The notes under the pieces are model-generated. The model was not told the DNA's origin. It searched no databases and was given only the letters and a program-made list of their open reading frames with translations. From positions 64,030-128,029 of the forward strand of contig MU271233.1 of the NCBI GenBank assembly GCA_021432655.1: a stretch of 64,000 bases of DNA, given 5' to 3'. Both the position numbers and the translations under genes were made by a program. Source of the DNA: Atractiella rhizophila (lineage: Eukaryota). Below, in pieces: positions 2,925-59,794 of this stretch (positions within the stretch are counted from its first letter, which is position 1; each line of letters starts with the position of its first letter).

Positions 2925-5900
2925 ATGTCGTCGCCACTGGGGTCAGCTAACGGAGGGGAGGGGGATTATGATCCATATGCACAGCGTGAAGAAGAGGCGG
3001 GGGATGCAGGTGGAAGCGCTTCAAAAGAGAAGGAAGATGACGATGAAGACGAGGCAAGTCCTTTCTCGTGACTAGAGCAGGAAGTGAGTCCTAAATGTGT
3101 GGCTGGTGACACAGGAGGAAGAAGAGGAAGAGGAAGAGGTGTCTGGTCCACGACGGAAGAAGGTTCGTTTGCCTCTGTGCCACCACTTCGCAACACTTTG
3201 ACTTATGTATGGAATGGTTGTAATGGATAGAGAAAGACGCGGGCTGGGCTGTCTGCCTTTTTGGATGTGGAAGCAGAAGTAGATGAAGAGGAAGAGGAAG
3301 AGGAAGAGGAGGCGGAGGAAGGGCTAGACAACGATTTCATCGTTCATCGCGAGACTTCAGTTGGGGTTGCGGACGATAGAAGACACCGAGACTATGATAG
3401 GATGCAGCATGATTTACTGGATAAGAGCGCGCAGGAATTGGCAAAGGAGTTCAGGGAAAGGTATGCGAGGAGACAAGGAGGGGGGTGGGAGAGCATGGGA
3501 GACGCTGTGCCGAGGAACGTTCTTATGCCTGGAGTCAACGATCCGAGCATTTTCGGAGTTCGATGCAAGGTGCGATATACTTTATTTTGTAATGGGCAAG
3601 TGGGTAATGTTTATTGTGTGGGTTGGGAATGAAGCCAGGAAAAGAGCGCGACCTCGTCTCTTCCATCCTCCGCAAGGCCATCGCACTCTCCACGACCGCA
3701 CACCCTCTTGCCATCACCTCTGCTTTCTACCGCGACTCTCTCAAAGGGTACATCTACATCGAGTCTCGCACCGAAACTGCCGTCCGGCATGCTGTGGCGG
3801 GACTGTTTGGAGTCTACCTCTCTGCGCCGTCTACCGCCTTCCCTTCGAATCCAGGACTGTTCCTCGTGAAGATTGACGAGATGCCGGATCTGCTGAAAAT
3901 CAAGAAGAGAGAAGCGAAATTGAGCGTGGGCTCTTGGGTCAGGGTCAAACGTGGTCCTTATGCAGGAGATCTCGCTATGGTGTCTGAACTGGTGGATAAT
4001 TCGGACGAGGTTGGACTCAAGTTGGTTCCCCGAATTGACTTGGCCCCTCCCAAGGAGAAACGTACAGGCGGAGAGGAGGAAAGTAAAAAGAGGAAGAGGG
4101 CCGATTTCACCGGTCCACGTCCTCCTCCTCGACTGTTCAACCCGGATGAAATTAAGAGGAGGTTTGGAGCCAAGAGCGTCAGCAAACCGACCGGAGGTTA
4201 TGTCACCTTTCAAGGCGAAAGTTATAAGGATGGTTATCTGGAGAAAGACTTTAAACTCTCATCTCTCGAGCTGGAGGATGTCTCGCCCACTTTGGACGAA
4301 CTGGCGCGCTTTGCGGATACGGACAAAGGGGAGAACCTGGCGAGCGTCCGCAATGCAGCGAAAGCGAGTCTCCAACCGGGAGATAAGGTCGAAGTCTTCG
4401 TTGGAGACCAGAAGGGACTGGAAGGAGTGATCGAGAGCGTGAATGGGGACGTTGTGGCAATAATACCCAACAAAGACCTTCACCCTGAACTGGCCGACCA
4501 AGAGATCGAGTTTCCGACTACGAATGTCAGGAAGCTCTTCAAGACGGGTGACCACGTCAAAGTCATGGCTGGCCAGAATGTGGATGAGACAGGTCTCGTG
4601 CTGAAGGTCAAGGACGACACTGTCACTTTTTTGAGCGATTTGAATCAGAAAGAGGTGGAAGTGTTTGCGAAGGACCTGAGAGAAGCGGCAGAGGTCGGTG
4701 GAGGGATGAATACCGTTGGTGGGTATGAGCTGCATGATCTCGTGCAGTTAGAGTGAGTCTCGCAACCAATCTGAAAAGCGAAGACATTGGTCTGATGTGC
4801 ATGCTGAACAGTCGCGAAACAACGGGTGTAATCTTTAAGATCGAGCGTGACACTTTCCGTATCCTCGATCAAGGAGGAGCTGTCCGAAGTCTCAAACCAT
4901 CACAGATCGGTGTGAAGGCAGACACTCGGAGGTCGGTCGCGATTGATCATGACGGCCATGATTTATCGACGGGCGATCTGGTGAAGGAAGTTGCATCGAC
5001 GGTTCGTGTTCATCCCCTTCTTCACCCCTCATCCCATGGTGGATTCATGGAATAACAATGACACGGCGATGTTAGGGACGAGAAGGACGCACAGGACGAG
5101 TGCTGCACGTTTACAGATCAAGCTATGCTTTCCTCCACAATCCAGATCTCCACGAAAACAGTGGCGTGTTTCTCACATACGCCCGAAATCTCGTCTCCGT
5201 CGCCCCCAAGAATCGCGCCGATGCACCAACCAACCCTTCGATTAAGAATGCGCTCTCCATACGCCCTCAGAATGGAGCAGGCGAGGCACCCATTGTGAAA
5301 GGTCGGCGGGATAGAGCCATTGGCAAGCGTTGTCGCGTCGTGAAGGGAAATTATAAGGGGCATACCGGCGTCATTAAAGATGCGAATGGACCTCTGTGTA
5401 GGGTGGAGTTGCATTCGAAGAATCAGATCATCACAATCAAGCGGGATTTACTGAAAGGCCTTGCGTGCGTCCCCCTCCCCTTGTTAGCTGGGCCTTGTAT
5501 TAACCGATGGAGAGCTTAGCGAGAATGGCGAAACTTATCCTCTTGATGCGTACGAGCCGGGCAAAGAACCCCAACGCAACTTCGACTCCGCTCCAGCCCC
5601 GCCGTCCATGTCAGCACAAACGCCTTTCCTCTCATCCCGTACACCAGCGTGGTCTTCCGGACGCACACCTGCCCCTCCTCCTGATTCGGGACGGACGCCA
5701 GCCTACGGAGGGGGAGGTGGTGGATGGGGTGCCTCTGCTCGACCGGGAGGTAGGACGCCAGGGTATTCGAATACCTCGAGAACACCTGCTCCTGCAGCTG
5801 CAGATGGAGGCTGGGCGAGTGGAAGGACCCCAGCAGCTCCGTCAACTAGCGGAGGATGGGGAGAGCCAGCACCTAGTCACGGTACAACGAGCAGCTGGGG

Positions 5901-10950: not shown

Positions 10951-13712
10951 ATGGCAGAGAGACAGGTATATTCGGACGGTGAACGGTGAGCTATTCTTCC
11001 TTCGAACGGTGCTCGAGCGGAGGATTGGGAGACTGATTCGCGTTGGGGTGGTGGTGGACGTCGTAGTGGCAGAGTCGGACACAGCCGGTCGACCTCTTCG
11101 CCCTCCCTCGAATCCCACGCCAACTCTGACGGAGGCTATTCCAACTCTTTCTACTCCGCCAGATCCCATGCTGGCTCTAGACTCGGCACTGCTACAGGTA
11201 CTTCTGGCGGAGGAGGAGGTGGCGGTGGTGGAAGGGAGAGGGGCGAGAGTATCTCGTCCCACGGACATGGACATGGAGTAGGACAAGGAGGAGCTTTGGA
11301 TGGAACACGGAGGTTTTACAGGCTTGACGAAGAGGAGAGGGAGAGACCAACCTCGGTCGCGGGGAGCATAGGAAGGGAGAGGGTCGTCTATTCCGTTGCT
11401 GGCAGCGTGAGCTCGGGTCGAGGCGGCCTGGGAGGGCTCGTCGGAGGAATGGGAGTGAGCGGAAGCGAGAGTGAGGGAGAACAGCAGAGGAGGGGATATG
11501 GGAACTATCAAGTCCCTTCCTCGAGGAGAGCTTCGGCTTCAGGCATGCCTCATGTCTTGGGAAACGTCATGGGAGGAAGCGGAAGTCCAGGCGGACATGC
11601 GCGCTCTATCTCCCTCAGGCCTGCGACCAATCGGCCAGGCTTCTCAATGGTTCGACAGCCTTCAGCTTCCTCAGCACGTCCGACCCCTCCACAACGCGGA
11701 CCCATCGTTACGCGTCCTCCGAGCATCCCAGCACCATCCATACCTCTGCCCTCTCCCCCTCCTCTCTCTCGCACCGCCTCCTCCAATTCTCGTAAGGACA
11801 AGGCTGGGAGCGAGGAGGAGAGCGATAACTCTCTCAGGAACTTAATTGCCGCTTCCGCGTTGGAGGAGGGCGAGTTCTTTATCAACAACCTCCTCCCAAA
11901 CCATCCTCTTGCGCTCCAAGCCCACACCAGGCACGAAGAAATAACCGTCCCCGAAGCGTTTAGGTCCAAACCCTCTTTCCCTAGAGAGCGAGCTCCGTCT
12001 TCTCCCACAGTCACCATGCATTCTGGTTCCGGAGCAGTAGTGAGGGGTGAGAACAGGAGACGACATACCTCGCTCACCTCCGCACCGTCTGGGAGTTCCC
12101 ACACCGCTGTGCCGTCGTCCTCAAGGAGGTCGAGGTTCCTGTCTCAAGACCAACTCCCGCGGGTGCGCGAACACGTCGTCAACATGGAGCATGAACGAGC
12201 GCACGTCCAAACGCCCCCAGCACCAAATCTGCACGCTCCGCCCCTCTCTTCGACCAGTGGCATGTCCTCGAAACCCTCTCAAGGCTCTTTGTCCTCCATC
12301 CCCCTCTCTAGCGACACCTACATCACCGTCCCTCAAGTGGGACCGGAGGACAAGTCCAACTTCATCCTCGTCGGATCTGGTACCGGAACAGGGAAACGCC
12401 ATAGCTTTCATAACTCTCTGTCCGCTAGACAATCCGCTGTCCTCCGTCCTCCCTCTCTCGTCCTTGACCCTCCACAGCCTTCGACTCAAATCGTGATCGA
12501 AACTGCCTCGGAAAAGTCGCCTCATCCTTCCGTTACATCTCGAGGACAGGGGAAAGACGGTTTGTGGCCGAAGCGGCAGGTGGTGGATGAAGATGGAAGG
12601 CGACTGAAGGTGTGGGAGGCGGTGGCAGCTCATAAGAAGGTCCGGTCCTCTCTATGGGGTAGCATTATGCTTTTGGTCTTTCCTGCTCTCGAAGGAGAAG
12701 AGGATAAGGGTCGTCCCTGGTCCTTCATCCTCTCCTTTCTCCTTCATATCGGTCTTGGGGCATTCTGGGCTGCAGCGGTACCGTCCCGCCTGCTCGACTC
12801 GACCCTCATCCCCCATTCAGCGGCCATAGTTCTCATCGCCGCCTTCGCATACCTTTACATCCTCTCCATCGCTGCCATGCTCAGGACCTCGTTCGCTGAC
12901 CCAGGATTCTTGCCAGCGAACCTGGATCCGGAACCGGAGTGGGAATGGGTGGGAGGGGAGAGGGCAGCGAGGATGAAGACGGTGAGGATGGACGGGCTCA
13001 GCGTGGATACGAAGTGGTGCGGAACTTGCAGGAGCTATAGAGGAGTGAGAAGTTCACATTGTAAGGTCTGCAACGTTTGGTTCGTCTTTCTCTTCCCCTC
13101 GCCGAAGAAAGTCACTGATTCCTATGTTGATTACCATGTAGCACGGAGGGAATAGACCACCATTGCACGTTCCTCAACAACTGTGTGGGCAGGCTGAACT
13201 ATGGCTCCTTCTTTGTCTTCCTCTCCAGCACTGTCCTCGGCCTCCTCCTCTCCCTCGCCGAAACCCTCCTCATCTTGTCCTCCCCACCATCTTGGGCACA
13301 CAACATCCGCTCCCATCCGCAAATCTTAGTCCTCGCCCTCCTCAATCTCGCAGTTCTAACTCCAATCCTCATCCTCTACTCCTACCACATCCGCCTCCTC
13401 GTCCTCGGCAAATCAACCATCGAACTCATCCGTGAAGGGGCAGCCAAAAGATTGTCCATCGCCCCTCAAACGCCAGGACTGATCCCTAGATCGCGATCGA
13501 AGGCCCCATTCTCCCAAGGAAGCGTGAGGCGCAACTTTCTTTTCGCACTGTGCAGGCCGGCGACGTTGGACGGATGGATCGAGTGGGAGGATTGGGCGGA
13601 AGAAGATGCCAGAAGAGAGAATCCGTGGTTTGAGAATGAGCAAGCAGAGGAGTCGGAGGCACAACATTTCGATGAAAGGGAGAGGGAGAAGACGCCTGAA
13701 AGTCATCGTTAG
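10951..13712 (+). CDS. DHHC palmitoyltransferase (Erf2-like) with long disordered N-terminus
   Basis: TM helices, RTSFADPGFLP, KWCGTCRSYRGVRSSHCKVCNV(C)-[intron]-TEGIDHHCTFLNNCVGRLNY, YHIRLLVLGKSTIE, PFSQGSVRRN. Start at 10951 inferred through an intron at ~10986-11066. Confidence 0.9.
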
Positions 13713-38987: not shown

Positions 38988-39494
38988 TGTCCCCCACAGA
39001 CCTCGGCTTCCCACAATAAATGGTATCGATATTGCTGCCTCAGCACTGATTGCGCATGGAGATTGAAAACAAGGTGTCATTTGTTACACTCGCCCCATAT
39101 TGTGGCTGCAGAGCTGGGACGTCAATTGAAGCGATAGGCGCATAGGCCCTGCTTGGTTCGGCTTGGTTGGATGGAACTGTTCATCGTCGCCTGAACGTTC
39201 ATAAATGTCAAAGCTTGTGGTTAAATGCTGGATTCGTTTCGCGTTGCATCACGTGGAGGGGCCGTAGAGTTTGAGCGAGATCGTCAACGAACCGCGTGGT
39301 GTCGGCACCCCACTCAGACCTTGGTTGCACTAAAAAAGACGACCATTCCGAAGAGCGATCCCTCCTTAGACAAGAATTCTCAGAGCAGTCTATCCATTTG
39401 ATCATAGATACAGTATCTCTGAGATAAGACAGCCTCGCGTGTGCATTCCCCTTACCCCCCTCACACCTCCAGCGCTGACCGCACAGCATAGGAA

Positions 39495-40623
39495 ATGACA
39501 AAGTTGAACTTGCTCGTTTCGCTATCCCTTGCTGCCCTCGCTCTCGCGGCTCCAGCCAAGGTATGTCTCACTCTCTCCAGTTTTGCTGTGGAAAGATTGT
39601 TGAGATGGGTTGGGTAGCGCGCCGAGGTTGGCGGCAACGTGCGAAGTTTCATTTCATGACCGTCTCTCTATTGCTGAGCAGTTGCGGGAAGACAGTTCCC
39701 CGCCAAGCAAGCTCTCGGTGCTTGGAAGAGGGACACGGCTAACATTGGGGACGTGGAAATCTTGCAGAAGTCATGGAAGAGGGATGGAGAGGTAGCGAAT
39801 ATCGGAGAGGTTGAGATTCTGCAGAAGTCTTGGAAGAGGGAGGAGGTGGCCGATATTGGAAACGTTGAGAACTTCCAGAAGTCCTGGAAACGCGGAGTGA
39901 GTGTTTCTCATTTTGGTATTCGTAATGTGTGGGTCATTGGGTTTAATGTTTTGTTTCGGGTGTTTGAAGAAGGATGAGATCTCCGTCGAACAGCACTCGT
40001 GGAAGCGCGTAAGCTATTCCCTCGTCATCGCATTGTCCTATAGGTGTGGTGTTGACTGGCTTTTGCAGGGCAAGGATGATGACATCTCAACTGACCAACA
40101 CTCCTGGAAGCGCGGAAAGGGGGATGACATCTCGACGGACCAACACTCTTGGAAGCGAGGGAAGGGAGATGACATCTCGACTGACCAGCATTCTTGGAAG
40201 CGAGGAAAGGGAGATGACATCTCGACTGACCAGCATTCTTGGAAGCGAGGAAAGGGAGACGAAATCTCGACTGATCAAAAGTCCTGGAAACGCGGAAAGG
40301 GAGACGACATCTCCACCGACCAGAAGTCGTGGAAGCGCACGAAGGACGGTGAATATTCTACCGAGCAGCACTCCTGGAAACGCTCCAAGGATGGCGATTA
40401 CACCACCGAGCAACACTCGTGGAAGGAACGCGCACCCACCAAGGACGGCGACTACACCACAGAGCAGCACTCTTGGAAACGCTCCAAGGATGGCGATTAC
40501 ACCACCGAGCAACACTCGTGGAAGGAACGCGCACCCACCAAGGACGGCGACTACACCACAGAGCAACACTCTTGGAAACGCTCCAAGGATGGCGATTACA
40601 CCACCGAGCAACATTCTTGGTAA
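39495..40623 (+). CDS. Secreted Kex2-processed repeat protein (KEP): precursor of 17 Trp-terminated peptides
   Basis: Five exons (~39495-39560, 39618-39638, 39696-39896, 39970-40008, 40069-40623) with GT-AG introns. Signal peptide MTKLNLLVSLSLAALALA, then APAKR, then units ending W followed by KR or KER; final unit ends W-TAA. Confidence 0.9.
40069..40620 (+). repeat. Coding tandem repeat: 45-bp units, then a 99-bp higher-order unit (~2.4 copies)
   Basis: GK(G/D)D(D/E)ISTDQ(H/K)SWKR x6, TKDGEYSTEQHSWKR, then [SKDGDYTTEQHSWKER-APTKDGDYTTEQHSWKR] x2 and SKDGDYTTEQHSW. Confidence 0.95.
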
Positions 40624-41111
40624 TCGGTGCGAGCTGTCTCTTTTCTCCGACCAATGCTTTGTCTGAAGAAAAACCACAGAGCCCGACAGTTTTCCTTATC
40701 GCTGTCACGTCCCAACCGCTGAGCGTTCTTTGATCGTCTGGATCGTTCACATTTTTATTCTATTCCTTCGTCCTGTTCTGTCGCTTCGACGTCCGTACCT
40801 GTTCTGGAAAAATGCATTCTCTCAATCTCTCTCAACCCGACCACCAGTGCCAACCAACGAGGACGTTCTTTGCGAACCCCCTCTCTGTCCTAATTCTTCA
40901 ATCATTCAGTCCCCTGTTCTATGATCTGATCTGACCGTTTGTTGCACTGTCAAAACGGCCAAACGGTCGTTTTTCTACTATTCTGTTTTATTTCATTTCA
41001 CTCTGCCTGCTTGAAATGTCGCTTGTCTCATACCCTCTCGAAAGAAGTAACGAATCAAATCAATGTGCTGTGCCTAGAGACAGACTATAAAACCAAAATC
41101 AATCTCCATCC

Positions 41112-44100: not shown

Positions 44101-46258
44101 TCTGAACAGAGGGGACAGCAACTCCCATTCCTCCTCCTCATTCCCTCTCTCCGACAGACGCATTTCATTACACACGGCCTTGAGAGTGATGCAGTCTGCA
44201 AGACTTCTCGATTCCTCCTCAGATAAAGCCTCGCCCTCTCCAGTGGGGAAAGATGAGAGGAAAGAATCGACTCGTTCCTCAAGCCTCTTTACTTCCTCTT
44301 CTACCCCGTATCCTTTCGTTCCTTCCAAGAGAATGAAACAAAGCTCAACCTTCTCCCCATTAATGGCGGTAGTATGGTCAATTCTCCTCCGCTTATGTGC
44401 TCTCTGCAGCGTCTTCTCCTCTCCCTCGTTTTCTCTCTCTGGGCTTCGAAAAAGCTCCGCCATGGTTCGTACCAGCCATCCTGCCTCTTTGGTTCCTATC
44501 ATCATCCGCAACTCGCCTATTACCTTCTTCATCCCTAGCAGACCCCTCGCACATCCTCCATCAGGTTCGTAGATCTCGGCAAAGAACTCTTCTAAAGAGC
44601 GCCTTCGTTGGTGGAGCTTCAGAATCGCGAGTGCGAGCTCCTCAGCGTGTGAAGAGTCCTCACACAAGGATCGAGATAAAGGCACAACGTGGTCCAACTC
44701 GCAGAGGACAATGAGGACCTCTTTTCCTCCCTGAAGCATGACATCCCGATAAAGGCTAGCCCACTCCTCTTCTGCCTCGCTCTTTACATACAACTTTGCC
44801 ATTTTCACGTACTCCAACAGCCTCGCCATTTCTCGGTCCTGCTGTGCTTTTCTGTCCTCTAAGTTATTTGCAACAAACAAGATTAACGTCTTTAATACCC
44901 CTCGACAAGCTTCCCGATATTGTCTGCCAGAATACGCCTCCTGCGCAGCGCGACCTTCTCCTCCGCCCCCCGAACGGCGCTCAGCTTTTGGAAGGGGGAA
45001 CAGTGCATCCTTCTCCCTTTCTAACGTGGCACAGAAACCGCGGAACCATTCCGCGAGAAAGGAGGGCTCCACTCGACCGAGCGCTTCCGGGATTGAACGA
45101 GGGAGAGAAATGAGTTTACGGATGGCGTCAAGACCTGGAGCGACATCGTACAATATACAGTCGATCAACGAAACGACAGCTGGAGGGAGGGAGGAATGAC
45201 ATCTTGAAAAAGAGGGGATGATGGAAGAGGACGAGAAGTAGAGGTCGTTCTGTATCTTCTTCCGAGATGCAGCAGGTAGGTGCAAATACCACTCCTTGAT
45301 TGGCTCGCAAAAAGATGTGGCGTCTTTGTCCATTGCTAATTTGGAGCGAGAGGCAAGGACATCGACATACGCTCTGAGCAGATCCAATAGGGGGTCAACA
45401 TTCGTAGTCCTAGCCAGCGTAGGAGGTAAAAGAATGCCCGAAACGATATAGAAGTCCAGTAATTCTCGATTGTCGTGGTAGTATGCGGGAGAAGAAGCGG
45501 AGGAAGTCGAGCGGAGGAGGTTTGAGAGGATGGGGAGGAGCGGTGTTTTGGAAATCAAGGCCTGCACATCTTTTGGCGTTAAAGCGTGGGCATTGTCGAC
45601 CTGGGTGGAAAAGAGGATATCTGCTAGGAGTTTCCAATATTGTTGCCTTGTTGGCGCATCGTCGCTATAGAATCAATCATCAGTCATCCATTCAGAATTG
45701 TGGTGCTCCATAATGACGGTGAACCAGAGAATCTTTCTTTCCTAAAGACTTCTCTAATCCATGCCAAAAATGTAATAAACGGTTTTCAAGGCATATACAT
45801 CCTTGGGCCATAGGATCATCTACTGCCAGTGCTGTATCACATCCAACAGCGGGTCTCCCCGAGGGATACACCATCTGTCTCATGATATCTCGGCTGTCAA
45901 TTACCATCTTTGGACTAATAATGTTGTTGCTGCATTGATAGTGCGCTATAATATGACATTTTGAAATACGAGGAAGAGATGCACAAAACTTCCAATTAAT
46001 TCAGGAGTGGAACAGTCGGCTCAACAAGTATAGACGATGATTGAGAAGGGCAGCGCACCCGAAGTTCCCCTTCAACAATCCCTCCAGCACCCATTCCGCC
46101 AGATAGAACCCCTTTTTAGGCACACCAAAGCCGACCTCTCGCGAAGGTGTGTACCATAACGCTGAAGCAAGCTGGACCTTAGACGATGGAGCTTGTTTTG
46201 GGTCGCGGAGTGTGCGGAAGAGGGAGTTAGCGTTATGCTGAGCCAGAATAGAGGACAT
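41112..46258 (-). CDS. URB2: Nucleolar pre-rRNA processing protein Urb2/Npa2-like (large, multi-exon)
   Basis: C-terminal Urb2-type domain (PLSKHGLFLLLSYL...RKELEPGWFEVLSCMGKHERESLM...ERMILRKLFKKWNQERYQG); N-terminus LFRTLRDP...SKVQLASALW...LAEWVL; exon 2 YWKLLADIL. Confidence 0.75.
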
Positions 46259-46359
46259 CGCTGATGCTCAGGCTCTTCGTCTTCCTAGAAGCGCGTGGAA
46301 GCCTACAAGATGCGGAAGCCGTGTAAGCTGTTACCTGGAGTGTACCAAATTTTTGAGGG

Positions 46360-46367
46360 GTCACGTG
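46360..46367. promoter_or_regulatory. GTCACGTG E-box ~100 bp upstream of the URB2 ATG
   Basis: Exact 8-mer, same element and similar spacing as at 27007. Confidence 0.3.
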
Positions 46368-48102
46368 CTCCTACTTACGCTTAAACGTTACCTTGAATAC
46401 TTCTGTTTGCATTTTTCGTGAGCGAGAGAGCATTGCAAGGACGATAGGAGTGGGTTCAGGAGATGTCGGAGGGGTATGTCGTGTAGAGTGTTTTTGTTTC
46501 GAACGATCTGGTGAGGTTGTATTTCACTTGACAGCCATGACTTGAAAATGTCCAGTCTTCATGCTTATCATGCGTAATGTATCTCTCTCGCCCATCTCAA
46601 GGATGGAAATGCATGCAGTTCTTGTTGGTAACTTCTCTTTGCCTCTATTTTTCGCTGTCTTCCGCTACATCCTAAATTTCACAAAGTCATGTGAACTTCG
46701 AGCCAGTTTGTTCATCATGATTCCAGATTCCAGTACTTTTGTGCTCGCCCTTGCTATATTAACTTCACTGTGACCCGACTAATGAGTACGGACGCCCGAG
46801 GTTTGGGTCGTTTGGGAGGGTAGCCCAGTTCACGATTGAAAACACTCCGTCTGTCCCTCTGCGATAGAATCATAATCCTGCGTTCAAAAAAAGGAGATAT
46901 GAGAAGAACTGCAAATATCTCGCTCGCTAGTCCCGCCATGGGTGACTGGCGGGACGCGCTACAGCGCTTCTCTGACCTCAACTCTGGAAGTCAATTGAGA
47001 TCGAGAATTCAAAAGGTCACTTGTTCTCAAGTTGGAAAGGACTTTTTAAACTCTCACTACTGGCGTTTCTTACCTGACTTAGGTGAAACTGCGCTTAGGT
47101 ACAATTAGACCACAACCCCTTTGTAAGAATCCTGTTGCTATCAGGTGGCAGGTGTGTGGCTTAACAGTGGTGCGGTGGAATCGATGCAGAGTGTGAGATG
47201 TAATCCGACGAAAGACATATATCCTCATACTTTTCCTAATCGCGCTGTAAGGACTGTTAGCAAGGTATCCGAGCCTTGTTCTTTTACGGTGCTTTGCACG
47301 TATTCCACAATAAAGGATTTGTTCCGCAGAAACGTAAAGAAGCGTGAAGGAAATATTCCGTACAAAGGATATCGTTTCATCAACTAAGCATTCATTACTT
47401 CGTACCCAAAACGTGTAGCTTACAATGCTTGAGTCCAAATACTCGTAGTGTATGCAATGAAGCTTTGTCAAAACCAAACCGCTGTATTAACAAGATAGAT
47501 GAGAGAATCAGAGCAACACGAACTGTTGGCGTTGAGCCAAGGACCAACGGCCAAACAGGGTACTATCAACATGTCAACCTAAGACCTAGACTTACCAACT
47601 ACCAACTTACTGCTGAACTGCACTCCCAACACTAAGTTGATCACTAACAAGAACCGAGAAACAAGAAAAAAGACAGGATTCAAAGCAAAGTCAAAATCGT
47701 ACTCGGAGGTAATCTACAACGGCGTTCATTCTTTCATTCTTTCGTGTTCTGAGCCTAAAGCGACAAGCGACGTTCAAGTTGGATGTTGCCAGAAACGAAA
47801 CGCATCCGTAGAGCTGACAATCAGACGAAAGAAGATGGTGTGTGATGTGGTGGGTTATGCAAGACGGATCCCTGAGTTGGCGACGGAGTGAATTTGAAGA
47901 TGTATGTGTATGATTGCGAGTTGAAACGGGGCGGCGTCCGTGGCGATGGTATCGTTAATTCGTTGTTAGTTCATGAAGTGACGCTTCCCATCTGGTGGGA
48001 TTTTCTTCAATTTACTCTGTTTCTCAAACAAGTCAACGCACGCCCTCTGCCTCAGAGCAAACAAGCGAGAGAAAGCGCACTTTTGAGTTCCGTTATCATC
48101 TT

Positions 48103-49878
48103 TCAATTCGTCAATCCCCCGGGCACAGCGATGGGCGTTTCCCCCCTCATTCCACGTCCCCCTTTGACATCAACATCCCCAAATGAAAGTTCCATTTCCT
48201 GTGTCCCATCTTCGTCTTCGTCCTTCCCGCTCCCACTCTCGCTCCCGCTGGATCCTGCGCTGGCGAGACCGTTCAAGATGCTTTTATAGGTCTACACCCA
48301 TCAATAACCAAAGCCAGAACACGTTCATTCGTAGTTCGATACGTTCATTCGTAGTTCGATCTGGACAAAAATGAATGGACCGACCTCAATCATCCGCTTA
48401 TCCATGTCCGCACTCTGTTTTCTTTTCCTCTCTTTCTCTTCTTCAGGCTCCTTGAAGCTACTGTAACCCTCCATGGCGGTGACGAAGGAATCTTCCCACA
48501 AGCTCTTGTCCGTTAAACCATCGTTTGGCTGGTATGACGACAACATGGCAGCAAGGTCGACCTGACCAACCTGACGGGTATGCGGTTGAGGAAGCGGCAG
48601 ACGAGTAGATTGTTGTTGCTCCACGATGGAGTGCAGAGATGCCAATCTATCGTTTACCTCGGCGAAATGAAAAGCGAACGAATCCCTCAAAGACCTCTTT
48701 TGATCCTCCGCCGCAGTGTGCACTCTCGCCCCGACGTCAATGAGAAGGCCTTCGAAGGTCTTCGTGAGCTCGGTCAAGTTGGAAAGCGCGGAGTGGAGGC
48801 TGCTGGAAGACTTGGTTGTGGAGTTGAGCAAGTCCTGCATTGAGGATTTGAGCGAACTCTGGACATTGACGAAGGGATCGAGCTCGGTCGAGAGACGGGA
48901 GATGAAGTCTGCCTTCGCCTGTGTCCTCAACTTGGACAGGTCAGACATGAAGGTCGCAAAGTCGGCTTTGGTCGCGAGGGAAGGAAGTAATAGGGAAATG
49001 CGCTTGGTATGCTGATAATTTTGGATCGTGATGTAGAGGTGTGCGAGGGTGAGAACGCACAAGAATATCTGCTTCGGTTTGTCAGCTAAAAAAGGAATGG
49101 AGTCAAAGAAAGTGGACGAACGAGTAGATGAGCAAGGTTCACACTGAGCCCGAGAATGGAAAGAGTGGGCCAAGGGATTTCGACCCCCGACAAATCACAT
49201 TTGACCACTTGCAGCACCTCTTCCTTCGTTTCATGATGAGGAGAAAACCATCCGAACCAGGAACTCCTGAGACTATCCATTTTTTCGAAGGGTTTAAAGT
49301 TGACTGAACAGAAATACTGAAGCTATGAAAAGTCGTAGGAAGTTGGTCGTCAGAAGAGAGGGCGAGAGGGCGGATCGTTGCTTTTGAACTGGTGCAAGTT
49401 GAGGAGAACGTCTGAAGGTGGGCTTGGGCGCAAAACACGATGGCAAGATTTCGACGTGAGACACAAGATTGGGTGCTGAAATTGAGAATTGGTCGGACGA
49501 GCTACAAACAGACAAGGCTTCAATTTGGCATTTGGGCGTAATGATGATCTGCCGCAATTCTTCCACTGTTCAAGTTGTCGGCGTCGCTATGACCAGTCGT
49601 TTGAGGACAGTGCAAAGCGTGTCAAAGCATCCAAGTGTCTCAAGAAAGGGAGAAGCCTTTGGGCAGTGGCTACTAGGATTACTGACTGGCGAACCCTGAC
49701 CAGGAAATAGTGACGAAGAAGGTCGAGGAGTGTTCCATCGCAAAAGCTTATCTTGTTCATCTTCAATCGCATCTCTGGGATGCGAGATGCGAGATAAATG
49801 ACTTGACCTCCCAAACCAACAAGCTCCTGTCTTTGCTTACAGTTGGCTTCCAATGATGGTAAACTTGGGTCTGGGGCA
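48103..49878 (-). CDS. Hypothetical protein with a hydrophobic segment and coiled-coil region (multi-exon; 5' structure uncertain)
   Basis: ORF 48325-49173 (IFLCVLTLAHLYITI, then heptad-rich helix), flanking exons with GT-AG sites, last exon ...ETPIAVPGGLTN*. No family recognised. Confidence 0.45.
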
Positions 49879-51930
49879 GAGCGAGTAAAGGACATCTTCA
49901 ACTACACGCGGGCGAATTGTGTAAGAGCGGATGGTTGGAGAACTGGTGGTGGGATGGACACTGGGAAGGAAGCATTGTGATAGCCATTTAGATGCAGATG
50001 TGAGCGTCTATTCCATTGGTGGGGATGTGAATTCCATCGTGAGAGGGCAAAGAACTCTCAGAGTTCAAATTTCAACATTCAACGGCTGACAGTTTCATTT
50101 CAACTGGCTGCCTCCCGAGGCACTCCACCTCTATTTCAGTTGAAATTCTGGCGTGTTTCTAGGCAAGGGAACCGGTGCGGATCATACCGTGTTCGTTTCT
50201 GGAAAGTGAATCACTCGATTTGAATACAAGCATGAGGCCTCAGGGTGGGCAGGAGCTCCATTTTAACCGAAGAAGACCTTACCGTGCACGTTCATTCGGT
50301 GGTTCTTCCTTCTGCTTTGACTGCTCCGTTCGGGGCAAAGCGCATAGTAGGACCAGGAAGGCATTCCTATTTGACATACAAAATGGTGCTTGACGGACGT
50401 TTCAGCAACACAATTCCACTTTCCTGTGAACTTCATGTGTGGAACGTAGAACATACTCTAGGACAATATCTGACTGGGAAAAGGAGCGTGTGGATGGAAT
50501 AGTCAGAGAAATTCGAGCTGGGAGGTGGGCGGAAATCTTGCTTGAGCTTTCACTCGGAATTAGGTTTTCGTTGCTCAAGCAGAATCTTTTGTTGGCAAGA
50601 TTTAAGGCAATCTGTCCTTATTTTGAGAGCGAAAGTGTCGAATCTTTTCTATCATATGTGGTTGGATCTCTTACTACTGCGGTTGAGGATGGATTGAAAA
50701 CAGAATGACCAAGTAATCACTTTCATCCCTCTTTGGCAGAGGACCTGTAGCGCGAGTGATTGAAAGCCCTAGCAGATTATCTTCTGACAAAGGGGCAGAA
50801 GTGAAGCTAATAGAAGAGATCTTCTTCTCACGAATACATTGTGGTATGGTGTTCCAAACCATTCTTCCAAGGTGCACAAGGACCGTAGCTTGTTACTTGC
50901 CCGTCCCGCATTTACAGTTTTGCAGCTCAGGCAAATCTGTAAGGTACCTCGCCGAAACTGTTTCGTAACATCTTTGTTCCCTTGTCTAGCGCGGTTCCAT
51001 TTTTAATCCATTCCTACATTTCTTCACTTCGAATTCTCTCTCGGCGTTTGTTCCCTCATTGACGAAGAGTACATAGCTGACCAGAGGAATAACGTGTTCC
51101 CCCTTCCATTCAAGAATCATATAATATTGAATAATCTCATGGTCTGTTGGAAGGCTTTATCGCTCTGATGAATTGATATTTGGTTGTCAACGTGACTTGA
51201 TTTGACCCTCGTGAGGTGTCTCAGAGTCGCAGTAGCAGCGCATTTGGTCCATTGAGCGCTTTGATACCCATGTATCGCCACGGACAGGTCCGAGTTCTAC
51301 TTTTTGCGCTCTTACGGAGGACGGTTCCCAGCATTTCTTAGAGTCCCTTATTTCCTCGCAGTAAACGCTCGTTGCATGGTCGGTCCCTGCGTACATACAG
51401 TGAGGAAGTGGGAATGGTCCAGCCTAGTCCGGAGAGGAAAGGACTCCGTCAAAGGAGTTTGCGTTGGAGCCGCAAATTGAGCAGGATGCTGCGTCTTGGC
51501 GCAATGATCTCCTGATCAGCGATGACCTGAAGACTGGATATGAATGGATAACGATAGTACAGCATCTGTACAACATTTGAGATACTGGCGTGATTTCCGG
51601 AAAACAATTGATACTGGGACAAAGGGTATAAAAGACCCGCATGGAGGCCAAAGTCAATTTCAGCCTTTGTCTTGTGCAATATTTAACCACTACCACTCTC
51701 AACATCTGAAGAAACAGGCCGCCTGCGATGTGGGATGCAGATGATTGGAGTGATGAGTCCAGAGCATCGGATTCCGATGATAGAACCAATGTAAATCGCC
51801 AAGTACAATCACAGCTTGGACGGCGGGCAACCAGAAGGAAGTCTAAGAGGAGAAGTGAAGTTATCGCTAATAGCTCACGTATGAGATTCTCTTAAGCAGA
51901 TTTCAATAGGTTGATGGCGAACCTTTCCAG

Positions 51931-52934
51931 GCTTTGAGGCGCAGCGGCTGTCATCATACAATCGTTCGATCCTTCGTCCTCATGGACGACATGCTTCCGC
52001 ACCAAATTTCCCCCTCCAGTACCACAACCACAACATTTCCGCACCGTCACCGATCGAAAACACGCCGCCTGATCCTACTTTCCGAGTGAAGCAATGGCAA
52101 GCGAATATACACGAGAGCAACATCCTCCCCGCCTTACCTTCCACCTCACAATCACACGAAGAATCGCAGACCTCCAGCTCGCAATCCAATCTCCAGAGTC
52201 TGAACATCGTAGCCTCCTCATCCAGCGTTACTTTAACACACTTCTCCCTTCCGCCTCGAATCGGCGAACCATCCCCTCTTCGTTCCAACATGTCAAATGG
52301 AGAGAACGCTTCTCTGAACCTTGTTGACTCCCCTTCCTCTCAACCTTCCACTCAAGACCATCATCCTGCCTCTAAACGCGATCTCCAACTCCATCCTATT
52401 GCCCCAGATCATTCCGCTCATCCTCGACGGGATCAGTCTCCCCTTCGATCGTTTGTTTCCAGTGCCTCCACCTCAGAGGTATCACCTTCACCAATCCGAA
52501 GTCCAGATCCCTTTTCTAATCTGGACGCAACTCACGGTCGTCCAACAGCTTCTTCACAGATTGATCTATTACCTCCGCTTCCTCCAAAGAACTCAGCACG
52601 ACTGACATTATCTTCACCACTACGAGATAATGCTGAGCGGCTTGTGATAACGAGGACGAAGGAAGAGACAATCATGGTTAGCAAGAGCCCGAATTTCATC
52701 AGTCGTAACACTCCACATTCAAATCAGACCTTTCATTCAAACGGTAAAAGGGATGCAAGACGCTCTGCCCCGGTCCCTCGTCCTATTTTTGTGAGTTTTC
52801 GACAATCTTCAGATTTCACAAATACCACTACTTCGTCGATGGAAGCGCGAGCGGAGGATGTGGAGGTGAAGAAGCACGGAATTGCTGCTTCCTTGGGCAG
52901 AAAGATAAAACTGTTTAGAGGGAGAAATAAATGA
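51931..52934 (+). CDS. Last exon of a hypothetical Ser/Pro-rich protein; upstream exons probably within ~50230-51880
   Basis: Open frame from acceptor ttccag (~51930) to TGA 52934, ending LGRKIKLFRGRNK. No family recognised. Confidence 0.45.
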
Positions 52935-53295
52935 TAATATGGCACCCTTCGCTGCTTCTTGTCATATTCAGTGACAACAGTTGGTAACCGATCCAACATC
53001 TGCTACAGTGTTCCAATTTACGTCTCCCTGAAAGGAATACGAGAACTAACGATGATGGGCAAACTCATGTCTGACGCTGAAGTTCCATTGAAGTCATCCG
53101 TAAAGCTCGGTTACTTCCACGCAACGGCGGCAGCTTCCTTCCGTTTCACCCACTGGGAACTCTGAGTTCCATCTGCCATCTCAGCTTCTTTACGATCAGA
53201 CAGCTGAGAGCGATCTTTTCACATCGGTAGGGAGGCCAGGAAGGATTGATATTCTGGAATACATTGTTTGGGCACAAATAACGATACAGTGCTTT

Positions 53296-55199
53296 TCATT
53301 TGAGCGTCCAGGTCTCCTCATGTTTCTCAATAGAGACGCTCCTCTTCTCATCCAAGCTCTTCCTTCCAGCTTCAAGGATGGCAGTCGTGAGAACAGTGTT
53401 TCTGCCAAAAATGGTCCAAGTCAGCACTTTTTTTCCTAGCAGAAACAGACGTACCGGATAGTGGGGAGTCCAATCCTGTCTAGATCTGCAGGAGTCGTTT
53501 TGCCGGAGTTCACCGCGATGCAACCGTCAATGAATTTCTCAATACTCTAGTACACAAGTAGTTCAAAGGAATGTCGTGGAGAAGTTGAGCCAAGAGAGAC
53601 GTACGACGTATCCATATCCCCTCTGTCCGTCGAACTCTCCTGCTTCATTTGGTGGGTATTTCATGTAGAATGGATTGATCCTGTCATGAAATACTTAAGT
53701 GCCCGGGCATGTTCTAAACCAAGCGACATACCAAGATATTCCTGAATTATCCAGCTGGTAATGATTCTCAGTCAACAGCTTTGAACTTGAAACAAAGCTC
53801 ATACGCCGACGGAATATCCCCTCTTCGCTTGATCTACGTGAATTTCGCCCTTTGCTCCCATGTAATGGAATCCTACACGGCATTGTCAGCATTACTGTTG
53901 CAGTCAACCAAAGCTGACTGACTTTGATCGGAATGTACTCCAACACCGACCTGTGTTTTACTTAGAACATTTCACCCCTTAGGAAGAAATAACGAACAGG
54001 AGCAGTCCAAGACCTGAGAAAAGTTAGTTTCAGTTTCTCACTGGATGTACAACTGCTTACGCAGTGTAGATAGCCGTCCCGAAATGCTTCTCTGATTTCG
54101 TAGATTTCCACTCGACGAGGAGGGATATTGTGTCCTAGCAAGCAGATATCAGGCACTGACTGCTTCTAGCTAGAGTCAGGCATACTTCGGTCCCCGCGAC
54201 ACATCCACAATCTGTCTCTGCAGTTCCCCGGCTCGCGCTGGCAGTCACTTTGACGGGCACAGCACGGTCTCCTACACTCCAGACGTGGATATCAATATGG
54301 TGGGAATTCAGGTAGTAGGAAATGTCGGAGTCCTGCCCAGCTGTTACAAGGTTAGCAACGCTAACCCAAGATATAACAACCTACCCCAAGCTTTGAAGGT
54401 TTCGAGTTGTGTTTTGGGTTGGCTCATGTACGAATTGAAGTAGTTAAATTCGCCTAATATTGACCTTCAGTCACGATGTCTACCGTGATTGGAAGCAACA
54501 GACCTAATAGAGCAGCCTTGGCTTTCGCATCGCCATATACTGGGTCAAACCTATAGCAAATTAGGTTACCTAGGTGAAATTCATGGTAAATATCGTACCT
54601 CTTGTGATGTTCAACCATGACGAAAACTCCATGCTTCTCAGCTGCGGCAATGAGCTCTTGGTGATGCGACAGAAGTTGAGTTGCCGGTTTCGTGACGAGG
54701 ACGTGTATCCCTCTTTCGATTGCGTAGAGAGCAATGGGAAAATGTGTTGAATCAGGAGTGAAGATGGTCTATGAGATTGTTCAAAGCTTTTCGGGACCAT
54801 CAGGAAGAAAGGCTCACGATCGCAGATCCTTTGGGTAATTGATCGATTGCCTTCTTATATGCCTCTGCATCCTTCTCTTGATCTCCAGGAAAAGACTCAA
54901 AGGAGCAATCCATTCCCTTATATGCGTCCTCGATGTTCTTCTTAAAGTGCTCTCGAACGGATGGAAACTTCGATCCACTTGTTCCCACAATGCTCAACTT
55001 CCCGACTTTCCCTCGTCGTCTTAAATCGAACAAAGTCAGTCCGACCACTCCGATCTTCTTGTCTGATGGACTGGCACCACTTCCTACGAATCCAGTTGTG
55101 TACCTGGCTGCTGTCAACTTGCCATGATTGATTGAAAGATCAGAAAGCGTACTCCCCACTGCCAATCATAGATACTGCTAACAAATCGTTGGATGCCAT
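53296..55199 (-). CDS. Gfo/Idh/MocA NAD(P)-dependent oxidoreductase, similar to fungal D-galacturonate reductase (GaaA-type)
   Basis: MIGSG-EYTTGFV...[103 protein letters not shown]. Confidence 0.85.
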
Positions 55200-59701: not shown

Positions 59702-59794
59702 NNNNNNNNNNNNNNNNNNNNNNNNNNNNNNNNNNNNNNNNNNNNNNNNNNNNNNNNNNNNNNNNNNNNNNNNNNNNNNNNNNNNNNNNNNNNN
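59702..59794. other. Assembly gap (N run)
   Basis: Run of n characters. Confidence 1.

Follow-up and report, generated by a model that had tools for sequence, protein, structure and literature searches.

In a 64,000-nucleotide stretch of contig MU271233.1 (Atractiella rhizophila, assembly GCA_021432655.1, positions 64,030 to 128,029; hereafter, the window), a gene on the forward strand at positions 39495-40623 is probably that of a Kex2-processed repeat protein (KEP), the released peptides of which would serve a basidiomycete-like, root-associated fungus as extracellular signals. KEPs are defined as proteins that carry a signal peptide and at least three similar motifs placed between dibasic sites (KR, RR or KK), the repeats being clustered and covering 15% or more of the sequence (PMC6339444). 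The predicted product has a signal peptide according to a rule-based reading, 17 units that all end in tryptophan (16 of them in Q[HK]SW), 15 KR sites, and repeats that, together with their spacers, account for 92% of its 293 residues. The KEP layout proposed in an earlier, sequence-only reading of the window is thus borne out.

The gene is transcribed and spliced as predicted. It comprises five coding exons, giving a spliced frame of 882 nucleotides (nt) that encodes 293 amino acids (aa) and ends in TAA, and four coding introns of 57, 57, 73, and 60 nt, each with GT..AG borders. A run search listed 24 sequencing runs, 20 of which carry the stretch wholly or partly; six of these 20 are recorded as RNA, all being root metagenomes, and they come from six studies. 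Contigs of the DNA run X1, of X6 and X20 from the recorded RNA set, and of the probable RNA run X12 were compared with the window, the last three runs representing three different studies, and the spliced form was found in both X6 and X20. The joints 39560>39618 and 39638>39696, which remove intron 1 (39561..39617) and intron 2 (39639..39695), are present in all three RNA runs. So is the joint 39896>39970 of intron 3 (39897..39969), with an alternative, 39896>39973, in X12 alone. The joint 40008>40069 of intron 4 (40009..40068) is seen in X6 and X20; the loose ends that X12 shows at the two borders are compatible with it. Not a single joint, either at the coding introns or at those of the untranslated regions (UTRs), was seen in the DNA run X1. 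RNA contigs therefore join exactly at all four introns of the gene model put forward earlier. Moreover, the GT..AG direction fixes the forward strand, and the long antisense and out-of-frame open reading frames (ORFs) over the repeats are consequently by-products of the repeats. One further joint in X12, 40436>40588, was rejected as an intron, given its CA..AG borders and extra letters between them, and is attributed to repeat collapse in short-read contigs.

The RNA contigs add two UTR introns to the model, both on the forward strand. The 5' UTR exon (39387..39438) has a start that is a lower bound, 39387 being the first RNA-covered base, at which record 22 of X6 begins. It is followed by a GT..AG intron of 53 nt (39439..39491) that ends 3 nt ahead of the ATG and is removed by the joint 39438>39492 in X6 and by a near-identical one, 39434>39492, in X20 and X12. 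On the other side, a second GT..AG intron of 53 nt (40627..40679) is removed by the joint 40625>40679 (cut +1) in X6 and X12, the latter also having a 55-nt variant. Since this intron begins 3 nt past the stop codon, the stop stays in the mRNA and the protein ends in Trp. Each UTR thus carries a 53-nt intron, lying within 3 nt of the start and the stop codon, respectively; the 3' one is too near the stop for nonsense-mediated decay to be expected. The 3' UTR exon (40680..41000), covered by RNA contigs from 40679 to 41000 and joined to the coding exon in record 26 of X6, heads towards a convergent Urb2-like gene, and its end is likewise a lower bound. Two observations concern the middle of the gene. 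Intron 3 ends in a tandem AAG-AAG acceptor (39967-39973), of which X12 uses both 39970 and 39973; use of the second would lose one Lys codon of unit 5. Between 39963 and 40106, the DNA run X1 has two contig versions: the first, of depth 89, matches the window exactly, and the second, of depth 163, has six differences from it, four of them in intron 4, which points to two haplotypes or nuclei within the material sequenced.

The encoded protein consists of an N-terminal piece of 23 residues ending in K-R, followed by the 17 units. Coding exon 1 (39495..39560, the exon itself beginning at 39492) encodes the signal peptide and opens the pro-piece. Position 3 is a Lys, residues 4-19 carry no charge and have a mean Kyte-Doolittle hydropathy of 2.17, and A-L-A precedes A-P, so that a cut after A-L-A would leave a pro-piece of five residues ending in the first K-R. 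The most hydrophobic 11-residue window of the whole protein lies in this region (2.45, against at most 0.78 elsewhere), in keeping with the signal peptide and short pro-piece described previously. Beyond the signal peptide, the mean hydropathy is -1.73, N-glycosylation sequons are absent, and the chain is repetitive and hydrophilic, with 54 Asp plus Glu and 51 Lys plus Arg in 270 residues. Coding exon 2 (39618..39638, 21 nt) contributes the R that completes the first KR and the beginning of unit 1, as set by the frame and the RNA joints. Coding exon 3 (39696..39896) completes unit 1 and adds units 2-4; the latter have 15-17 residues, QKSW ends, and a KR after each. Coding exon 4 (39970..40008, 39 nt), likewise placed by frame and RNA joints, is made up of unit 5 and its KR. 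In coding exon 5, the first part (40069..40337) holds units 6-11, all six of which are of the GKGDDISTDQHSW type, have 13 residues, and are followed by KR, and the second part (40339..40620) is made up of units 12-17, which belong to the SKDGDYTTEQHSW type.

The ends of the units are far more constant than the rest. All 17 Trp residues of the protein, which has no Cys, are the final residue of a unit; Ser at -2, His or Lys at -3, and Gln at -4 are each found in 16 of the 17 units, unit 1 being the sole exception. The residue ahead of the Trp is thus Ser in 16 units and Ala in one, and there are no D-W dipeptides. The last Trp (40618-40620) is followed directly by the stop codon (40621..40623). 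The lists of units given in the sequence-only reading are accordingly correct, as are its counts of Trp ends and Q[H/K]SW ends and its placing of the last Trp at the stop. KR occurs 15 times, once after the pro-piece and 14 times between units, and RR and KK do not occur. At the two remaining junctions (40423-40431 and 40522-40530), both within units 12-17, K-E-R followed by A-P takes the place of KR. The cores are long and acidic; Tyr, preceded by Asp or Glu, is present in six of them (units 12-17) and missing from the other 11, the cores varying at its position. No other KEP-like ORF was found in the window, in which three or more W[KR]R occur only in two ORF pieces of this gene.

The Q[H/K]SW end and the KR cleavage site are under purifying selection while their codons drift. 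Tandem Repeats Finder reports three arrays of differing sequence, with periods of 54 nt (39761-39889), 45 nt (40078-40337, 5.8 copies), and 99 nt (40338-40620, 2.9 copies with 94% matches), and comparable arrays are found nowhere else in the window. The three sub-arrays have little in common beyond a Q-x-S-W-K-R block, within which Gln is encoded by CAG nine times and CAA seven times, Ser by TCT (7), TCC (4), TCG (4), and TCA (1), Lys by AAG (9) and AAA (5), and Arg by CGC (8), AGG (3), and CGA (3), that is, by three codons of two codon families. Because three differing arrays share only that block and its codons vary, the pattern exceeds what chance or plain DNA duplication would give. Comparison of the runs with the window points the same way, as expected from the earlier proposal that the Q[H/K]SW end is selected: 16 differences were counted, of which intron 4 accounts for four and the coding sequence for 12 (nine synonymous and three not), and none of the 12 hits Q[HK]SW or K-R; some of the differences may have arisen where a contig was aligned to an adjacent copy of the repeat. 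The earlier claim that the free end is the active motif was too firm; the free Trp end may have this role.

Precursors of this design are well known in basidiomycetes. In Agaricomycetes, Trp-ended KEP peptides, namely QYKAPSW, GPPAPSW, SGTGEASAADW, and SGVAADW, have been detected by mass spectrometry (MS), and many basidiomycete KEP cores have a C-terminal tryptophan, according to Vogt et al. (PMC9769878). Their precursors (Coprinopsis cinerea 490115 and 447393, Lentinula edodes 2599, and Pleurotus 1091723) resemble the present one in having a signal peptide, short Trp-ended cores, and dibasic spacing, and two of the cores end in S-W (QYKAPSW and GPPAPSW), as 16 of the 17 units do here. The Agaricomycete products are linear and MS-detected, with single-Arg cuts and removal of XA/XP dipeptides, and no function has been found for them so far. 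There is no detectable sequence homology between those precursors and the present one. The present cores are longer (12-17 residues), acidic, and Q[H/K]SW-ended, STE13-type dipeptides are found solely at the two K-E-R junctions, and the host lies outside the sampled Agaricomycetes.

A conserved XSDW repeat has likewise been described in Basidiomycota (Le Marquer et al., PMC6339444). In Laccaria bicolor, MiSSP8, which carries the repeat (DSDW-RR)n, is cleaved in vitro by KEX2. Ectomycorrhiza, with the formation of the mantle and the Hartig net, requires it, and its knock-down has a phenotype (bioRxiv 10.1101/218131). MiSSP8 and the present protein are alike in being secreted and unstructured, with short acidic units and a Trp directly ahead of the dibasic site; MiSSP8 is expressed in the root symbiosis, and transcripts of the present gene occur in root metatranscriptomes. 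They differ in that MiSSP8 has D-W-R-R and cores of four residues, which the cores here exceed in length by a factor of three to four. The DW[K/R]R family, to which MiSSP8 belongs, comprises 38 retrieved proteins with 3-17 repeats, and its pattern is DW[K/R] at least four times at a spacing of 2-20 residues (bioRxiv 10.1101/218131); membership of the present protein was rejected, as none of its 17 units has D-W.

Pheromone precursors were considered as well. Saccharomyces MF-alpha1 and the ascomycete alpha-pheromone precursors share with the protein a processing logic of signal peptide, KR sites, trimming by Kex1, and Ste13-type XA/XP removal, and many Sordariomycete pheromones end in Trp (the 'PCW' motif), like the units here. 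In contrast to these precursors, the protein has no Cys pair, and A-P follows only the two K-E-R junctions and not each KR. Pfam MF_alpha and MF_alpha_N gave no match at E<=0.001 on the ORFs covering exons 3-5, and an ascomycete alpha-factor precursor was rejected on these grounds. A basidiomycete a-type lipopeptide pheromone precursor was rejected too, as the protein lacks any Cys and hence a CaaX box, as had been stated before, ends in Trp, and has a signal peptide. Mating-locus genes are absent from the window in Pfam scans that covered all 160 ORFs of at least 100 aa and, from 28.0 to 55.5 kb, 184 of the 205 ORFs with 55-99 aa. Of these smaller ORFs, the remaining 21 overlap the KEP gene (8) or the Urb2-like gene (13), and domains split by introns could escape such scans. 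Basidiomycetes are not known to mate via alpha-type pheromones (PMC6339444; PMC9769878). The precursor differs also from Qsp1 of Cryptococcus, which has a single-copy core and no sequence likeness to the repeat protein described here. Qsp1 is a secreted autoregulatory 11-mer of a basidiomycete that ends in Trp and acts in a quorum-sensing-like manner, with a different route of maturation and uptake.

Following the KEP pathway, in which signal peptidase acts first, kexin cuts after K-R in the late Golgi, and Kex1 strips the basic residues (PMC9769878), signal peptidase would cut the protein after A-L-A, a late-Golgi kexin after each K-R, and a Kex1-type carboxypeptidase would take off the Lys and Arg to leave a free C-terminal Trp on each peptide. 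If cleavage occurs at K-R only, the products would be 13 linear peptides, 12-17 residues long and with net charges of 0 to -3, along with two double units of 31 residues. If the lone Arg of K-E-R is cut too, there would be 17 peptides, and the A-P exposed by that cut would be a substrate for a dipeptidyl aminopeptidase of the Ste13 type. Cuts after a single Arg were observed with Coprinopsis KEPs expressed in Pichia, and there is evidence in basidiomycetes for removal of X-Pro dipeptides of the Ste13 type (PMC9769878). The release of 17 peptides, as claimed from the sequence, thus holds with respect to 17 Trp-ended units but not to all of them being bounded by KR: strictly, there would be 13 single and two double products. 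The peptides would most likely be secreted, unmodified or minimally modified extracellular signals that, by analogy with MiSSP8, would work between hyphae or at the interface with the root.

Several points weigh against this reading. The signal peptide is called on hydropathy and the -3/-1 rule, and K-E-R is not a canonical kexin or dibasic site at two of the junctions. As to the processing of the precursor, we infer it from a pathway known for alpha-factor, for KEPs of Coprinopsis, Lentinula, and Pleurotus, and for MiSSP8. The predicted MiSSP8 peptides themselves were undetectable in vivo in the hands of the authors (bioRxiv 10.1101/218131). Knock-outs of six Coprinopsis KEPs had no phenotype (PMC9769878), and neither had those of six KEPs in Fusarium; a signalling role is therefore not the rule for KEPs. 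The runs examined are contigs, from which presence and splicing can be read and expression levels cannot be ranked. Finally, no homologue emerged from any of the sequence searches described below, and there is hence no cross-species conservation to back a function.

Three other explanations have to be weighed. The precursor architecture is identical to that of the dikaritins (UstA, PhomA, and others; PMC9769878), a kind of peptide made on ribosomes and modified after translation (RiPP), and the KR-spaced cores might accordingly undergo cross-linking or another modification through Tyr or Trp, before or after kexin cleavage, by enzymes of the DUF3328/UstYa type or by others, to give cyclic products. 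Trp is indeed present in every core and Tyr in six of the 17, and the KEP type with Trp and Pro recognized by Umemura comes with DUF3328 genes (PMC7329392). Nevertheless, this is very improbable. Dikaritin precursor genes have a DUF3328/UstYa gene, and often a tyrosinase or methyltransferase gene, nearby, whereas the Pfam scans of the window found no match to DUF3328/UstYa, tyrosinase, P450, methyltransferase, homeodomain, or pheromone-receptor families; tailoring enzymes (DUF3328, tyrosinase, P450, and methyltransferase) are missing within about 11-15 kb of the gene. The absence of tailoring, homeodomain, and pheromone-receptor genes argues against both a clustered RiPP pathway and a mating locus. 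The cores are, in addition, longer than those of dikaritins and not centred on Tyr. Moreover, just 103 of 1680 basidiomycete KEPs (6.1%) have DUF3328 within 15 genes (Umemura, PMC7329392).

There is a similarly small chance that the KR pairs are incidental and that the protein is a secreted acidic repeat protein left largely intact or wall-associated, as a structural, adhesive, or ion-binding coat. It is unstructured, repetitive, and highly charged, the products of Ustilago Rep1 are wall-associated (PMC9769878; bioRxiv 10.1101/218131), and the failure to detect MiSSP8 peptides in vivo may reflect binding (bioRxiv 10.1101/218131). However, K-R is kept at 14 of the 16 junctions between units, across three diverged sub-arrays and with three Arg codons, which is hard to explain without selection on the site; a Trp directly ahead of every site and at the C-terminus suits a released end; and Rep1 is cleaved by kexin too. 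It is also quite unlikely that the peptides are directed at the host, whether as effectors or by imitating a plant peptide hormone in roots, with, for example, the D-Y of units 12-17 resembling a sulfotyrosine peptide. Transcripts are present in root metatranscriptomes of several studies, and [DE]-Y occurs in six units. Mimicry of plant peptides by root microbes is known, but we know of no plant peptide family that the cores resemble, and 11 of the 17 units have no Tyr. Furthermore, MiSSP8, the closest functional precedent, appears to act on hyphal aggregation and not on the host (bioRxiv 10.1101/218131). A KEP whose peptides serve as extracellular signals thus remains the preferred explanation.

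As for its relatives, the last exon (184 aa) shared words with 127 candidates in an index of 5.8 billion proteins, none of which reached E<=1e-3. An exhaustive HMMER search of 1.84 billion representatives returned 26 matches at E<=1e-3, the best at 1.1e-10; the 11 of these that were inspected are all unrelated repeat proteins, none having a signal peptide together with the W-KR layout. The best score in the ESM Atlas, 0.86, is under the lead level of 0.9. In metagenome contigs, a scan for related loci gave 25 pattern matches, none confirmed by tblastn, and a degenerate two-unit DNA pattern gave 112 stretches, 12 of which have two W[KR]R in a single frame and none of which has more, which looks like chance. 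No named product with a Q[H/K]SW core was found in a literature search, outside which lay the sequence tables of the catalogues in PMC6339444 and PMC7329392. The product of the gene itself appears to be absent from the protein collections searched, probably owing to its two exons of only 21 and 39 nt. These blank searches are weak evidence of rarity, because short repeat cores diverge fast, the host proteome is seemingly outside the collections, and many KEPs stand alone: 2560 of 7878 catalogued KEPs, about one third, have no homologue (Umemura, PMC7329392). The earlier suggestion of a new family therefore holds in so far as no homologue or named product was found, but its novelty was overstated, since Trp-ended basidiomycete KEP peptides (APSW, AADW, and DSDW) are already described and about a third of the catalogued KEPs stand alone. 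The precursor is a new, apparently orphan example of a well-described and common class of peptide precursors rather than a new kind of system.

The lineage of the host was approached through a housekeeping gene of the window. The NGN-KOW core of Spt5 (3608-4753) is 49-53% identical to the best of 690 matches, the best being spread over Pucciniomycotina and Agaricomycetes, and its nearest Atlas clusters are mostly from Basidiomycota. In a quick tree (no outgroup, with a long-branch warning), it has a branch length of 1.04 and falls outside ten Agaricomycetes (support of 100 in the SH-like approximate likelihood ratio test, SH-aLRT), loosely with Pucciniomycotina. Judging from these sequence comparisons, the host lineage seems to be without a close annotated relative in the collections. 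A Serendipita-type endophyte, considered at first, is disfavoured by them, and the three KEPs of Serendipita indica in the expression data of Le Marquer et al. have lengths of 2100, 801, and 363, none of which equals the 882 nt found here.

In the surroundings of the gene, the scanned ORFs match housekeeping families only (WD40, Urb2, Aa_trans, CPSF1, Spt5, DHHC, Pil1, bZIP, and GFO_IDH_MocA). By their Pfam matches, Pil1, Spt5, DHHC, CPSF1/RSE1, and bZIP genes lie upstream, an amino-acid transporter (Aa_trans) lies near 30 kb, and a WD40 gene ends near 38.9 kb. On the other side are the convergent Urb2-like gene (41.1-45.7 kb), which, used as a query, gave no match at E<=1e-10, and a piece of GFO_IDH_MocA at 54.5 kb. 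Downstream of the Urb2-like gene, about 9 kb (45700-54400) are free of Pfam matches on ORFs of at least 55 aa; the ORFs there include one of 289 aa (48328-49194, reverse strand) and one of 339 aa (51915-52931, forward strand), and the region could hold lineage-specific genes or decayed repeats. An exact tandem duplication of 20 nt is found at 48321-48360. Upstream, a frame of 721 aa without a Pfam match (10990-13152, forward strand) runs into the ORF of the DHHC palmitoyltransferase in another frame (13131-13709), and the two probably form a single gene (10990-13709), the long N-terminal region of which is unrecognised. An assembly gap, 93 N in length, lies at 59702-59794.

KEPs are common, with about five per fungal genome, and nearly all of them are without a function. 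The precursor described here leaves the known working of such proteins unchanged and, among basidiomycete precursors with Trp-ended peptides, brings the core families to four, the new one being unrelated to the others. With a gene model proven by RNA and transcripts in root metatranscriptomes, it is a reasonable candidate for peptidomics and for a colonisation test of the kind carried out with MiSSP8. It is conceivable, albeit doubtful, that the Q[H/K]SW peptides are a colonisation-stage signal and that the recurrent Trp ahead of the kexin site in unrelated basidiomycete precursors (DSDW, AADW, APSW, and Q[HK]SW, with Qsp1 likewise ending in Trp) goes back to a single recognition step that they share. 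Such a step, in which the free C-terminal Trp is read, would consist in a common receptor, an importer of oligopeptides, or a rule of processing or protection. Were such a shared recognition of Trp true, many orphan KEPs would fall into a single signalling class that can be tested.

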